DNA from: Escherichia coli
Lineage (GTDB): Bacteria > Pseudomonadota > Gammaproteobacteria > Enterobacterales > Enterobacteriaceae
Direction: 5' to 3' (one strand)
NCBI RefSeq assembly: GCF_041886205.1
Contig: NZ_CP169030.1
Length of the DNA: 64,000 nt
How positions within the stretch are numbered: position 1 is the stretch's first letter; each line of letters begins with the position of its first letter. This document shows, piece after piece, positions 42,290 through 54,206 of the stretch. The notes below the pieces were generated by a model. It made no database searches and was not told where the DNA came from. It was given only the letters and a program-made list of their open reading frames with translations. The position numbers and the translations under genes were made by a program.

Positions 42290-42309
42290 GTTTCATTCTC
42301 CTGTGTCTG

Positions 42310-43030
42310 ATGTTTTCAGCCCCCATCATCTGTTGAGTTTCGGGAGCCGCGGTTTTGACGTTTTGCGGGGACCTGCTCTTTGCTCCCTCCGGTATTCACC
42401 ATCACCTGTTTGAGAACCTTCGCCGCATGGGGCATCACTGCCACGGCCGGAAACGACTGTCCGGGGGCAGACCGCAAAAGTTTTTGCCTGCTTTTGGGCA
42501 AAAAGTTTTGCGGGATGTGCATTTCACCCCTGGACTGGCGGAGACGGTTGTGGCTGTCTATGCCCCCGGCGACAGGGGCTTAAACAGGTGAATCGCACCG
42601 GACAGAACAACGGGCAGGGACCCGCCGCAACGACGTGAAGCGCGGTTTGCGAAACGGCGTTGCTCCTTACATCCCGGCGTCTTTTTGCCGGGATGCCGGG
42701 AGCGCAGGTCACGGCGCGACAAGGGTGGCGCGACCGTTCCGGTCGCTGAAAACCCGGGTTTTTGCGTCAGGGATGGAAGCCGCCAGGGCGGAGACAGCTC
42801 CGCTGGCTCCGTTCACGACAGCCCGCCCCGCCAGGGGGACGCCCGGAAAAGGCACTGCCAGGAGAACAACAAAACAGAGAGTAATCAGAGCAGCAGAAAA
42901 AAGAAGAACAGTAGCAGGAACCGCAACATCATCAGTAACAGACAAATGACAGGTCTGAAAAGACAGAAGCCCACAGCAGAACGTCCGCGTAATGAAAGGG
43001 GCGGCGCGTCAGCGCGGCCTTTTTTACCAG
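42310..43030 (-). repeat. Leading-region structured repeat copy A (candidate ssDNA promoter, Frpo/ssi-like)
   Basis: One of four direct copies; extensive dyad symmetry; abuts RBS of 41993-42289. Confidence 0.6.
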
Positions 43031-43066
43031 CACTGACACCGTGTGCCAGTGCAGCCTCTGGCGACG

Positions 43067-43381
43067 CTACAGCGCTGCCAGTTCATTCAGGATATGGGGG
43101 TTTCGCTCAACCATTTTCATCAGCAGGATGGCTTGTTTATTAGGTTTAGCCAGTCCCTGCTCCCAGTTCTGCAGGGTAGTGACGCCGGTATGTAAATACT
43201 GTGCGAAAACAGCCTGTGATAGCTTCAATTTTTCGCGTACCGCTTTCACCTCATCGGGCGTCATAGTGACGGGTTTTGCGCTGACCTTGTGTGTTCTCAA
43301 AGTTTTTTTGCCAGCATTAAACTCTCCCCACGCAGCCATGCCTTCCTGCAATTCGCTAAAAATATCACGATCTTTCATCAA
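43067..43381 (-). CDS. HigA-like HTH (XRE-family) antitoxin
   Basis: 104 aa with C-terminal HTH; 4-nt overlap (ATGA) with upstream toxin gene. Confidence 0.75.
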   Translation of the reverse strand: MMKDRDIFSELQEGMAAWGEFNAGKKTLRTHKVSAKPVTMTPDEVKAVREKLKLSQAVFAQYLHTGVTTLQNWEQGLAKPNKQAILLMKMVERNPHILNELAAL

Positions 43382-43716
43382 CGCCCCCTTCGTCTGGCCT
43401 GTTCAAGCATTTCGCGTAAAATATCGCGCTGTGCTTTCGTCAAATCATCTTTCTGGTCTTTGTCATACAGGGTGAACAACAGAAAGTGGGATTTTTCCAG
43501 ATACCAGTAGTAAATCACTCTGATGCCGCCGCGTTTCCCCTTGTTACGCCTTGCATCCCCAAACCGTACCTTGCGCAATCCCCCGGTATGCTGGATAACA
43601 TCACCGCATAACGGATTTTTCAGCAACATCTGCTGAAACTCCCGAAACTCATCATCCGTGAAATATTCAGCACGATGCCGCTCGAACGGCGGCAACTCGA
43701 CAAATAGTGCTTCCAT
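43378..43716 (-). CDS. HigB/RelE-superfamily toxin (addiction-module killer protein)
   Basis: 112 aa with …KGKRGGIRVIYYW…LLFTLYDKDQKDDLT… motif typical of HigB-like toxins; toxin-first gene order. Confidence 0.75.
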   Translation of the reverse strand: MEALFVELPPFERHRAEYFTDDEFREFQQMLLKNPLCGDVIQHTGGLRKVRFGDARRNKGKRGGIRVIYYWYLEKSHFLLFTLYDKDQKDDLTKAQRDILREMLEQARRRGR

Positions 43717-43828
43717 AACACCTCACAAAATCCCCTTTACTTGGGGATATTATACCCCCCAACATGGGGACTCTTCAATTGAGTTCAGACAAAACCTCCT
43801 GCTTTAGCAAGCGTTTCATAGTGCCCAA

Positions 43829-44074
43829 TCAGAAGTTCCAGCCCATCCGCTTTTTTTTGAAAACGGCTGTATGTGAAACCATCGCATCGATCAGTGCATC
43901 AAGCTCTGCGCGGAGCTCCAGTATCCTGGTTGTAAACGTATTTTTGCCCTGGCTGGTCATCCAGTTTAAATATGCCTGTACCGCGCGTTCCTGCATGATT
44001 TCGATTTGGGTAATAGCATCTTTTTGCTGATCGCCAGCAGATTTAAAATTTTTTCTGAAAACAAATGCCCCCAT
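43829..44074 (-). CDS. Hypothetical small protein, paralog of 41993-42289
   Basis: 81 aa sharing GDQQKDAI(A/T)QI(G/E)IMQ motif. Confidence 0.55.
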   Translation of the reverse strand: MGAFVFRKNFKSAGDQQKDAITQIEIMQERAVQAYLNWMTSQGKNTFTTRILELRAELDALIDAMVSHTAVFKKKRMGWNF

Positions 44075-44142
44075 TTTAATTTCTCCTGTGTTCTGTAATA
44101 CCTGGATATCCGGGTAAAGGGGCGTTTACGCCCCCCGCTGAT

Positions 44143-44475
44143 TTACATGTTCTGCTCGCTATGTATTCTTCTATTCACAATTGAAAATAAATGTTTTTTT
44201 TGCGATATCACTTTTCTTTTTATAATTCGCACAATTTCAGGCATCGACTTGTTCAGGGGGATCCATGCAGTATCCCCGTTCAGTTCATCATATACACACC
44301 CATAGATATGAAGCATTCCGTTCATTACAAAGCAGTACATTGAAAAATGTTCATATTTTTTCTCCGCACTGATTAACTGAAAATAACCTTTTATTAAACC
44401 CTGTTTCGGTGAAGGATTAATTAACCAGCCATTATCCAAAGATAAACAAATATGCTCAATTATTTTCTTTTCCAT
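44143..44475 (-). CDS. Hypothetical protein in low-GC segment
   Basis: 110 aa ORF, AT-rich island, followed by hairpin terminator at about 44100-44125. Confidence 0.45.
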   Translation of the reverse strand: MEKKIIEHICLSLDNGWLINPSPKQGLIKGYFQLISAEKKYEHFSMYCFVMNGMLHIYGCVYDELNGDTAWIPLNKSMPEIVRIIKRKVISQKKHLFSIVNRRIHSEQNM

Positions 44476-44529
44476 ATTTACTCCAACGAAAGCTTTATCC
44501 TAATTAATGGGGCATTGCCGCCCCTTGTG

Positions 44530-44799
44530 TTAAATGGCGTAGCCTCTTATCTGACTCAAAAACTGTTTGAAGTGATCAGCTTCCGCAATGTTGATATGGC
44601 GGAACTGCGTATCCACACCCCGGCTGAGCGCGTAGCTATAGCTGAAAGCCATCTTTTCCGGGTGGCTTTTGCGATATTTTTTCAGCTCATTCAGACTGCT
44701 GAACTCCAGGAGGTCCCACTCTTCTCGGGTGTTTTTTTTCTTTTCGGCAACAAGAAGCGTGTACGACGCGGTGTTAACGTGGATATTTCGGGTACTCAT
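44530..44799 (-). CDS. Hypothetical protein, first gene after repeat B
   Basis: 89 aa; SD upstream abutting repeat B. Confidence 0.5.
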   Translation of the reverse strand: MSTRNIHVNTASYTLLVAEKKKNTREEWDLLEFSSLNELKKYRKSHPEKMAFSYSYALSRGVDTQFRHINIAEADHFKQFLSQIRGYAI

Positions 44800-44814: not shown

Positions 44815-45420
44815 CTCTGGTTTTCAGCCCCCATCATCTTTTGAGTTTCGGGAGCCGCGGTTTTGACGTTTTGCGGGGACCTGCCTTTTGTTCCCTCCGG
44901 TATTAACCATCACCTTTTTGAGAACCTTCGCCGCAAGGGGCATCACTGCCACGGCCTGACGCACCTGTCCTGGGCAGAACGCAAAATTTTTTACCGGGTT
45001 CTGGGTAAAAAATTTTGTGGGCTGTTCATTTACCCTGGACAGTCAGTGCGGCAGGTTGTGGCTGTATCAGCCCCCGGCGACAGGGGCTTAAACAGGTGTA
45101 TGGCACCGGACACAACAACGGGCAGGGACCCGCCGCAACGACGTGAAGCGCGGTTTGCGAAACGGCGTTGCCCCTTACATCCCGGCGGCCTTTTGCCGGG
45201 ATGCCGGGAGCGCAGGCCACGGCGCGACAGAGGCGGCGCGACCGGAACGGTCGCTGCAAGCCCGGGGTTTCGCGTCAGGGATGGAAGCCCGCCAGGGCGG
45301 AGACAGCTCCGCTGGCTCCGTTCACGACAGCCCGCCCCGCCAGGGGGACGCCCGGAAAAGGCATAAGCAGGAGAACAACAAAACAGACAATAATCAGGGC
45401 AGCAGTAATCAGAGTCAGAA
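44815..45420 (-). repeat. Leading-region structured repeat copy B
   Basis: Direct copy of repeats A/C/D. Confidence 0.6.
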
Positions 45421-45697: not shown

Positions 45698-45856
45698 CTA
45701 CTTACCGGATTCGTAAGCCATGAAAGCCGCCACCTCCCTGTATCCGTCTCTGTAACGAATCTCGCACAGCGATTTTCGTGTCAGATAAGTGAATATCAAC
45801 AGTGTGAGACACACGATCAACACACACCAGACAAGAGAGCTGCGTGGTAGTTTCAT
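45698..45856 (-). CDS. hok: Hok-family toxin (flmA/hok) with overlapping mok-like ORF to 45997
   Basis: 52 aa [52 protein letters not shown]; hairpin terminator 45668-45690. Confidence 0.9.
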
Positions 45857-46130
45857 GGCCTTCTTCTCCTTGCGCAAAGCGCGGTAAGAGGCTATCCTGA
45901 TGTTGTCTAAGCATGCAGGGGCCTCGTGGGTTAATGAAAAATTAACTACGGGGCTTTTGTCCTTCTGCCACACAACACGGCAACAAACCACCTTCACGTC
46001 ATGAGGCAGAAAGCCTCAAGCGCCGGGTACATCATAGCCCATATCCCTGCACGCTGACCACACTCACTTTTCCTGAAAATAACCCGCTCACTCAGGCTGT
46101 TTACGGGTAATCTGTGTGATTGTTGCCGCA

Positions 46131-46849
46131 TCACGCTGCCTCCCGGAGTTTGTTCGGCACCATCCACCGCTCCATCTCACGGACAGCGTGACCGGCCTCT
46201 CTTGCTGCAAGACTGGCTTCCGCAATAACCTGCCAGAACGGCATATCCTGCCACTGCCAGCGTTCCATTCCGGCCAGTGACGGAAAACGCTCGCCCCACT
46301 GCCAGAACAGGGTTTCCAGGTCATGCTCTGCCACCCGGTCACTCCAGCGTGCATGCCAGCTTCCGACTGTTTCCGGCGAATGGAATGCCAGTTCGATTTC
46401 AGCCTGAGCGACCAGCGCCTGGTACGCACGGGCTTTCTGCTCTGCCTCCCGTGCCTGCTGGCGGCTGTACTTCTGCATGACCAGCGCGGATTTATGGCGA
46501 CTGCGCTCCCTGACACGAAACCGCACCGACGGAAACAACCGCTCTGCTGCATCACCAGGAAGGGGAAGGAGGCAGACCTCGCCCTGTGTTTCAATCAGCA
46601 CATCGATGGCATACAGCCACTGAAGACGGTTGCCGTGCAGTTCTTCTGCGGTCAGGGACGGCATGAAAAATCGCAGGTCAGACAGCGATATCCTGCGGCT
46701 TCCGTTCAGACAGCGGAAAAACGCCCCCGCATACGGATATTCGCCAGCGTGTTACCCTGATGGCGGCGTTTTTCTGTCTCCGCCACCGCCCGCCATGCGG
46801 CCTGTTGCTCTGTGCTGAGGGGAACCAGTGCCTGTGAACGTACGCTCAT
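46131..46849 (-). pseudogene. psiA: psiA (plasmid SOS inhibition A), apparent frameshift near 46742
   Basis: N-terminal 36 codons ([43 protein letters not shown]) are in a different frame from the remaining PsiA body (from …EYPYAGAFFRCLNG…). Confidence 0.7.
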
Positions 46850-47280
46850 ACCTGACCTCCTTCCGCCATCAGGATATGGATGATGTCGTTAACGCTGTAC
46901 CCCTGCGTATCCAGTGACGCCGCCAGTGCCAGTGAATGACTGACGGCTTCCGGTGCAAACCGCCGCTGTACCTGAACCACCGCAAACGGCTCACCACCGG
47001 CATTCACCAGAACCAGCACCCAGACCTGAGAGACATCGCCCGGTGAACATAACGCCAGGTGAAAACGTTCGTGAGCAGGCGTGAAACGGACCTGGACGGG
47101 GGAAAAGCCGCCAAACTCGCTGCCATACTCGCCGTTCATCGTCCAGTTATCCGGCGCATCCAGCTCCCGCATCACGGCATGTGTGAGTTCACGACGTTCA
47201 TCACTTCCGACAGCCCGGATGTCTTCATATTCCTGTGCGCTCATGGTCTGTAATACATTCAGGGTCAGTTCAGTTTTCAT
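46846..47280 (-). CDS. psiB: PsiB, anti-SOS (RecA inhibitor)
   Basis: 144 aa [12 protein letters not shown]…; stop abuts psiA start. Confidence 0.93.
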
Positions 47281-50204: not shown

Positions 50205-50930
50205 GATGTTTTCAGCCCCCATCATCTGTTGAGTTTCGGGAGCCGCGGTTTTGACGTTTTGCGGGAACCTGCTGCTGTATTCCCTGTGGTATGAACTTCA
50301 CCCGTTTGAGAACCTTCGCCGCAAGGGGCATCACTGCCACGGCCTGACGCCCCTGTCCTGGGCAGAACGCAAAATTTTTTACCGGGTTCTGGGTAAAAAA
50401 TTTTGTGGGCTGTTCATTTACCCTGGACAGTCAGTGCGGCAGGTTGTGGCTGTATCAGCCCCCGGCGACAGGGGCTTAAACAGGTGAATGGCACCGGACA
50501 CAACAACGGGCAGGGACCCGCCGCAACGACGTGAAGCGCGGTTTGCGAAACGGCGTTGCGCCTCACATCCCGGCGGCCTTTTGCCGGGATGCCAGGAGCG
50601 CAGGCCACGGCGCGACAGAGGCGGCGCGACCGGAACGGTCGCTGCAAGCCAGGGTTTCGCGTCAGGGATGGAAGCCCGCCAGGGCGGAGACAGCTTCGCT
50701 GGCTCCGTTCACGACAGCCCGCCCCGCCAGGGGGACGCCCGGAAAAGGCATAAGCAGGAGAACAACAAAACAGACAGTAATCAGAGCAGCAGAAAAAAGA
50801 AGAACAGGAGCAGTAGCAGGAACAACATCATCAGTAACAGACAAATGACAGGTCTGAAAAGACAGAAGCCCACAGCAGAATGTCCACGTAATGTAAGGGG
50901 CGGCGCGTCAGCGCGGCCCCTTTCACGCCA
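50205..50930 (-). repeat. Leading-region structured repeat copy C (immediately upstream of ssb)
   Basis: Direct copy; abuts ssb RBS. Confidence 0.6.
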
Positions 50931-53014: not shown

Positions 53015-53245
53015 TCAGTTAAAAGCGCGTTTCAGTTCGAGTGTGCGGAGCACCTGCCCGAAGGCCGTGTTTTTCATGGCGGGGATGTGTACACCACGCC
53101 CCCGGTGAAAACTCCTGGCAATGTGTCGTCCGAAGGCTTTCAGCACGGGGTCAATTTCCGGCGCGGGGATGTCTTCGCGTCTGAAACGGGGATGACGGCG
53201 GGGCTTTACAGCCGCTGCGGAAGGTGAAACAATACTTACTGTCAT
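53015..53245 (-). CDS. Hypothetical basic small protein, first ORF after repeat D
   Basis: 76-aa ORF. Confidence 0.35.
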   Translation of the reverse strand: MTVSIVSPSAAAVKPRRHPRFRREDIPAPEIDPVLKAFGRHIARSFHRGRGVHIPAMKNTAFGQVLRTLELKRAFN

Positions 53246-53479
53246 AATTTAGCCTCTTATGACGTTAATTAATGAAACCGTAAAGACTGTTCGTGCAGTC
53301 TCTGCGGTGTGGATTAAGCAGGTCCCTGACCTGCTTTTTTCATATCTGCATCTGACGCTTTCCGGTGTTTTCCTCCTTCTGTTCCTGCGTTCTCATTACC
53401 TGCCAGCCGGATGACTGACAGAACAAATAAATGCGTATTGCCGGAGCCTGAAATAAATCCTGATTTTTAAAGAACATCA

Positions 53480-54010
53480 CCCGTTGAGTTTCGGGAGCCG
53501 CGGTTTTGACGTTTCGCGGGAACCTGCTGCTGTATTCCCTGTGGTATGAACTTCACCCGTTTGAGAACCTTCGCCGCAAGGGGCATCACTGCCACGGCCT
53601 GACGCACCTGTCCTGGGCAGAACGCAAAATTTTTTACCGGGTTTTGGGTAAAAAATTTTGTGGGCTGTTCATTTACCCTGGACAGTCAGTGCGGCAGGTT
53701 GTGGCTGTATCAGCCCCCGGCGACAGGGACTCATACGGGTGTGTGGCACCCGGCAGGCAATGAGCAGGGACCCGCTGCAACGACGTGAAGCGCGGTTTGC
53801 GAAACGGCGTTGCTCCTTACATCCCGGCGGCCTTTTGCCGGGATGCCAGGAGCGCAGGCCACGGCGCGACAAGGGCGGCGCGACCGTTCCGGTCGCTGCA
53901 AGCCGGGGGTTTTGCGTCAGGGATGAAAGCCCGCCAGGGCGGAGACAGCTCCGCTGGCTCCGTTCACGACAGCCCGCCCCGCCAGGGGGACGCCCGGGAA
54001 AGCCATAAAC
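53480..54010 (-). repeat. Leading-region structured repeat copy D
   Basis: Direct copy (left end diverged). Confidence 0.6.
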
Positions 54011-54206
54011 AGGAGAGGAACGGAAAGAAGAGGAAGAAGAACAGTAACCACAGAAACATAACATCAGGAAAAAACATTCCGGACACATCACAAACGGGAA
54101 GGGAAGCGGGCGACGCGCCAGCGTGGCCCGCTTCCCTTCCGGCAGGCGCCAGCCTGCCAGGGGTTTTCGCGCGGGCTGACAGGCGGCCTCCACCGCCTGC
54201 CCTGTA

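Follow-up and report, generated by a model that had tools for sequence, protein, structure and literature searches.

psiA is a pseudogene, broken by a single-base deletion, in the leading region of an F-like plasmid of Escherichia coli

The closest described counterpart of the gene studied here is psiA of the F plasmid (PSIA1_ECOLI, 239 aa; PF06952), which follows psiB immediately, overlapping it by ATGA, and lies upstream of flm/hok-sok. In the IncFV plasmid pED208, an engineered psiA deletion left pilus production and transfer unchanged and did not raise mating-induced SOS, which showed a slight, statistically significant drop; SOS was raised only by the psiB and ssb deletions (Al Mamun et al. 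2021, PMC8406263). Historically, SOS inhibition had been obtained from psiB expression only, and the authors of the pED208 work proposed that PsiA may act against PsiB or SSB (PMC8406263). In F, the genes downstream of Frpo2, psiA included, reportedly appear not to be needed for conjugation (PMC9849209). These dispensability data concern pED208 (IncFV) and F in laboratory E. coli, and they bear on the plasmid described here by analogy.

We analysed a 64,000-nucleotide stretch of E. coli contig NZ_CP169030.1 (the window). It is a segment of an F-like plasmid and carries repA of the IncFII type, finO in intact form, the complete tra operon, oriT, the leading region, sopAB and repE. The psiA locus lies in the leading region next to oriT in the order ssb - yfjA (DUF905) - parB-like yfjB - psiB - psiA - flm/hok-sok; the order of ORFs in the window is that of the F annotation and was the same in a second contig, L015. 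Compared to nt 1-720 of F psiA, the locus showed 99.7% nucleotide identity with one gap, and homology extended over the whole gene length once a frameshift was allowed. A tblastn search with PsiA found no second psiA copy in the window. The features of the locus are listed in Table 1, together with lesions of psiA found in other contigs.

Table 1 Features of the psiA locus in the window and lesions of psiA in other contigs (positions are those of the window, except that nt positions of lesions refer to psiA).
Feature	Position	Strand	Contig	Description
Hok-family toxin	45698-45856	-	window	Pfam HOK_GEF; flm module
mok-like DUF5431 ORF	45702-45914	-	window	Pfam DUF5431; flm module
sok RNA	45854-46025	-	window	Rfam sok, 92.6 bits; flm module
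psiA 3' part	46131..46745	-	window	PsiA residues 36/37-239, -1 frame relative to the start, stop at 46131
Synonymous T	46557	-	window	CCC (F) to CCT, Pro; accompanies the G deletion and marks the haplotype
psiA 5' remnant	46706..46849	-	window	native start, 36 native codons and 11 out-of-frame codons, TGA stop; 47 aa
psiA frameshift site	46741..46743	-	window	single G at 46742 where F-type psiA has GG
psiB	46849..47280	-	window	144 aa, intact; its translation is coupled to the start of psiA
psiA lesion			L005	G lost from a G5 run
psiA lesion			L006-L008	A gained in an A5 run
psiA lesion	nt 129		L013	1-bp deletion
psiA lesion			L011	28-bp deletion between GCTGTCTGA repeats
psiA lesion	nt ~136-146		L010, L012	IS21-family insertion
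psiA lesion			L009	5' deletion

The start codon of psiA (ATG 46849-46847, minus strand) overlaps the psiB stop as ATGA, the end of psiB reading GTATGA, and is preceded at 5 nt by the Shine-Dalgarno sequence GAAGGAGGU (-12.3 kcal/mol against the anti-Shine-Dalgarno); start and Shine-Dalgarno are the same as in F. A sequence-only reading of this DNA had placed a canonical PsiA N-terminus with a good Shine-Dalgarno at 46849, directly after the psiB stop, and had proposed that the gene is frameshifted after about 36 codons, and both proposals were borne out. Alignment to F-type psiA from two plasmids revealed a 1-bp deletion at nt 108/109 (codons 36/37; GCGGAA to GCGAA), which agrees with the break predicted at about 46742, where GCGAATATCC stands in place of GCGGAATATCC. 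Over 801 nt, the window and F psiA differed only in this deletion and in the synonymous T/C at 46557, so that the 720-nt F gene is otherwise identical; this two-difference match was also the best match to the window psiA in PLSDB, and no record scored better.

The 47-aa ORF that remains at the native start encodes 36 native residues followed by NIRMRGRFSAV* (translation of 46706-46849, minus strand), and the early stop anticipated by the sequence-only reading was therefore correct, while its length of about 46 codons has to be amended to 47. When PsiA was searched against the window by tblastn, residues 1-49 and 36-239 were recovered in two frames, the second of them encoding residues 36-239 from 46745 to 46134 at 99.5% identity, as expected if the remainder of PsiA lies in another frame. 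The earliest start codon in this second frame, ATG 46664 (Met63), opens a 177-aa ORF (46131-46664, minus strand) beginning MPSLTAEELHGNRLQWLY, which matched Pfam PF06952 PsiA (1.6e-29) at model positions 81-236, whereas F PsiA covers positions 4-236. An intact PsiA is a single ORF of ~236-259 aa spanning model positions ~4-236; the window has a 47-aa and a 177-aa ORF in different frames, and no frame joins A17, A21, E26, P39, A43, R46 and the motif YPYA.AFFR to the C-terminal body. Residues 1-36 are encoded, but motif positions 38-46 give NIRMRGRFS in the wrong frame, and translation stops after residue 47. Compared to the 239-aa protein of F, the frame is thus broken at codon 37, and the predicted outcome is a peptide of 47 aa plus a 177-aa ORF that is translated poorly or not at all. 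We conclude that psiA is here a real and ordinary pseudogene allele of a known gene, and the two ORFs are best annotated as one psiA pseudogene and not as two genes. The gene is well known, and its fragments from this allele are already in public databases: the 47-aa product is deposited as EKI56240.1 ('protein psiA [Escherichia coli N1]'), and an exact-sequence look-up in a large protein collection found it in 26 contigs (34 index blocks) and the 177-aa product in 94 contigs.

The position of the lesion within the protein was assessed with homologues and a structural model. The 34 full-length homologues that were aligned, the most distant at 29% identity, all had A17 and A21, and at least 90% of them had E26, P39, A43 and R46; the frameshift falls directly ahead of the most conserved N-terminal motif (consensus YPYA.AFFR). 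Distant full-length homologues, down to ~30% identity, all span residues ~4-236. The AlphaFold2 model of PsiA (P0001; pLDDT 87.9) is confident and consists entirely of helices; those at residues 13-30 and 39-49 are predicted with confidence, and a long one of about 48 residues spans positions 107-154. No relative was found in the PDB by sequence, and Foldseek against the PDB returned nothing below E = 3.6. Upstream of the internal ATG at 46664, no Shine-Dalgarno was detected (+0.3 kcal/mol). Little or no functional PsiA is expected from this locus, because the rest of the gene is out of frame and lacks a ribosome-binding site of its own, and the allele is accordingly expected to be null. It would then be functionally equivalent to the engineered pED208 psiA deletion, which likewise leaves psiB and ssb intact and gives the phenotype expected here, i.e. 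normal transfer and no rise in mating-induced SOS (PMC8406263). The two differ in that pED208 is an IncFV plasmid with a clean laboratory deletion, whereas the window allele is natural and both gene fragments remain.

The G deletion was found in none of the 4,130 PLSDB records and none of the 3,218 complete E. coli genome records that matched a 61-nt stretch centred on it; all of them aligned to this probe at 98.4%, i.e. with the extra G present. The reference psiA genes, which the sequence-only reading had wanted checked for a shared deletion, are accordingly free of it. The exact 719-nt allele (deletion and T at 46557) was present in 11 contigs (L014-L024) that stem from no fewer than 10 independent assemblies or SRA runs, comprising the NCBI assemblies GCA_002229125.1, GCA_002228695.1, GCA_023162125.1, GCA_036886615.1 and GCA_000303635.2 and the Logan assemblies SRR36103916, SRR31764273, SRR33751223, SRR25913618 and SRR9913805. 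The NCBI accessions fall in widely separated series, suggesting that unrelated sequencing projects lie behind them, and the T at 46557 accompanied the deletion in all 11 deletion-carrying contigs. The only full match to the window was the draft contig NLMI01000008.1 (GCA_002229125.1), which was 100% identical over 20,144 bp; over the 14-22 kb surrounding psiA, the PLSDB and RefSeq E. coli records gave no match better than about 95%. Elsewhere the surroundings varied: L016 and L018 had internal deletions in the backbone, L017 carried other cargo downstream, and L022 was 95.7% identical to the window overall, with every difference upstream of 47500 and an identical psiB-psiA-flm block. The occurrence of the identical allele in differing backbones points to a single mutation that was then inherited vertically while the plasmids rearranged and recombined. 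The allele is rare and is carried by a small family of F-like plasmids, and the deletion with its linked SNP is a handy marker for tracking this plasmid sublineage.

A sequencing or assembly error that hides GG and an unbroken psiA might be suspected, since the change is an indel of one base in a short run of G and is missing from about 7,300 matching records of complete plasmids and complete E. coli genomes. We regard this as extremely improbable and rejected it, since an error would not be expected to recur as an identical allele with a linked synonymous SNP in 11 contigs from at least 10 assemblies or runs with differing structural contexts, which effectively answers the concern that resequencing might restore the extra base. 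A GG dinucleotide is, moreover, not a typical site of homopolymer errors, and the remaining window shows no scattered coding indels compared to F. The 34.8-kb tra block was 99.2% identical to that of F with five single-base gaps, none of them inside tra genes; some lay a few bases from the finO/IS3 junction, two compensated each other within a diverged stretch of the SLT transglycosylase gene, and others were close to the opposite end, and their confinement to the two alignment ends indicates that the assembly is not generally prone to indels. An alternative explanation is that the deletion is real and psiA is still expressed, either by -1 ribosomal slippage or by reinitiation at Met63 giving an active C-terminal fragment. 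The frame would be recovered by a -1 shift at any point from codon 37 to the stop (codon 48), a U5 run is found in that interval 20 nt downstream of the deletion, and slippage on CGU UUU U (psiA nt 129-133) would recover the frame with seven altered residues, while reinitiation could profit from the stop of the 47-aa ORF being only 42 nt upstream of ATG 46664. However, an X XXY YYZ heptamer is absent, a recent deletion leaves no time for a stimulatory signal to evolve, and the internal ATG has no Shine-Dalgarno. The Met63 fragment would moreover be without the six conserved residues from A17 to R46 listed above and without both confidently predicted N-terminal helices, which speaks against its activity, and other plasmids are broken in the same region by an IS insertion and by a 28-bp deletion, as fits plain inactivation. 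Continued expression of psiA is therefore very unlikely, only slightly less so than an error, though spontaneous slippage on the U5 run or reinitiation could yield a low level of full-length-like protein. A programmed ribosomal frameshift in particular was rejected, as no slippery heptamer lies between codon 37 and the stop and all relatives in two large collections have an in-frame GG, and the C-terminal fragment from the internal ATG, which the sequence-only reading had put forward for testing, was judged unlikely for want of a Shine-Dalgarno.

A different question is whether the loss of psiA was neutral or selected. Contigs encoding the same 177-aa fragment revealed at least six further independent lesions (Table 1), and protein searches found a 143-aa nonsense allele (P0116) on 657 contigs, 253-aa frameshift read-through products (e.g. 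P0069) and an in-frame deletion. These other natural IncF nulls (e.g. P0116, P0069 and the IS21-disrupted L010 and L012) resemble the window in that the same gene is inactivated and psiB retained, whereas their mutations are separate and of independent origin, the window allele being its own haplotype. If PsiA antagonises SOS suppression by PsiB and SSB, nulls could be positively selected in some hosts, and the statistically significant SOS reduction on transfer of psiA-less pED208 (PMC8406263), the many independent nulls and the persistence and diversification of the present lineage can be read in this way. Against it, psiA was a single unbroken match in 58 of 60 complete plasmids (~95%) sampled systematically from PLSDB by tblastn and split in two frames in the other 2, a figure that is only indicative since nonsense alleles escape detection in such a sample; this share and the full-length conservation down to ~30% identity argue for purifying selection overall, and the present allele is rare, with no occurrence among the 4,130 PLSDB plasmids. 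As a rule psiA is thus maintained, with null alleles in the minority, and because the gene is conserved in distant plasmids and mostly unbroken, it has some selected function, the loss of which may carry a cost. We consider adaptive loss unlikely, albeit less so than either error or continued expression. If true, recurrent and selected psiA inactivation would make these nulls an adaptive tuning of the plasmid entry programme and not neutral decay.

We are confident that the window carries a heritable loss-of-function allele of psiA, which arose once by loss of a single G and is tolerated. In the mechanism that we propose, an F-like conjugative plasmid (IncFII/IncFIA, FinO+) lost one G from the GG at codons 36/37 of its leading-region gene psiA; ribosomes entering at the native psiB-coupled start would halt after 47 codons, leaving the remaining 203 codons out of frame, and the mutation would have moved by descent and recombination through a small plasmid family. 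Mating-induced SOS suppression would be carried out by intact PsiB and the plasmid SSB. The psiB product is indeed well preserved (140 of 144 residues identical to F PsiB; full-length match to Pfam PF06290 at 3.9e-62), as the sequence-only reading had noted, and its suggestion that PsiB alone may keep the anti-SOS function agrees with the pED208 deletions, in which loss of psiB or ssb raised SOS and loss of psiA did not (PMC8406263). By analogy with pED208 and F, the loss would be tolerated because PsiA is needed neither for transfer nor for mating-induced SOS suppression. Downstream of psiA, the flm/hok-sok module (45698..46025, minus strand) is intact and, because it has its own signals, should not rely on psiA being translated. 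An F-like lineage with an intact transfer region would then circulate without PsiA, in agreement with the laboratory deletion data, and its members are natural knockouts for seeking the function of PsiA.

Further observations were made on related plasmids. The F plasmid of E. coli EMG2 (L002:3052-3814; NZ_CP099589.1 74035-74797) has psiA called as a 763-nt 'frameshifted' pseudogene by RefSeq/PGAP although its 239-aa ORF is intact, and for many other NZ_ plasmid records PLSDB listed no psiA protein under the match, which fits the same pseudogene call. This call on F psiA is likely an annotation artefact, with 253-aa read-through products (such as P0069, the C-terminus of which is the psiA +1 frame) as reference proteins. 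Two sister plasmids of the window with the same psiA allele, L016 (GCA_002228695.1, 9513-10004) and L018 (SRR36103916, 12900-14765), carry further deletions, one of which makes an SSB-PsiB fusion ORF and another of which fuses sequence adjacent to traK with traD; both plasmids appear to be decaying offshoots of the psiA-allele lineage that no longer conjugate.

Within the window, finO (6997-7608) is intact, with a full-length match to the FinO model and, unlike in F, no IS3 insertion; because finO is intact, the plasmid is expected to be transfer-repressed. Positions 42900-44550 are inserted in comparison with F, with the DUF932 gene/Frpo-like repeat on one side and flm on the other, and contain a weakly RelE-like ORF (43378-43716; Pfam RelE 2.4e-4, below the family cut-off) that overlaps an MqsA/HTH antitoxin-like ORF (43067-43381), and three small ORFs (43829-44074, 44143-44475 and 44530-44799) that had no family match. 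A repeat of ~550-600 nt occurs in four copies (42296-42896, 44820-45374, 50208-50810 and 53475-54040), compared to two in F, and matches the F leading-region repeats (F 72.7-73.4 kb and 78.1-78.7 kb) at the Frpo/ssi single-strand promoter regions of F. One extra 22-bp iteron-like repeat (AGGGCAATTTGTCACAGGGTTA) relative to F was found at 63430, adjoining repE, and the leading region also contains, at 53240-53339 on the plus strand, a match to Rfam AS-pc01 (antisense RNA to pHK01_035) at 98.9 bits.
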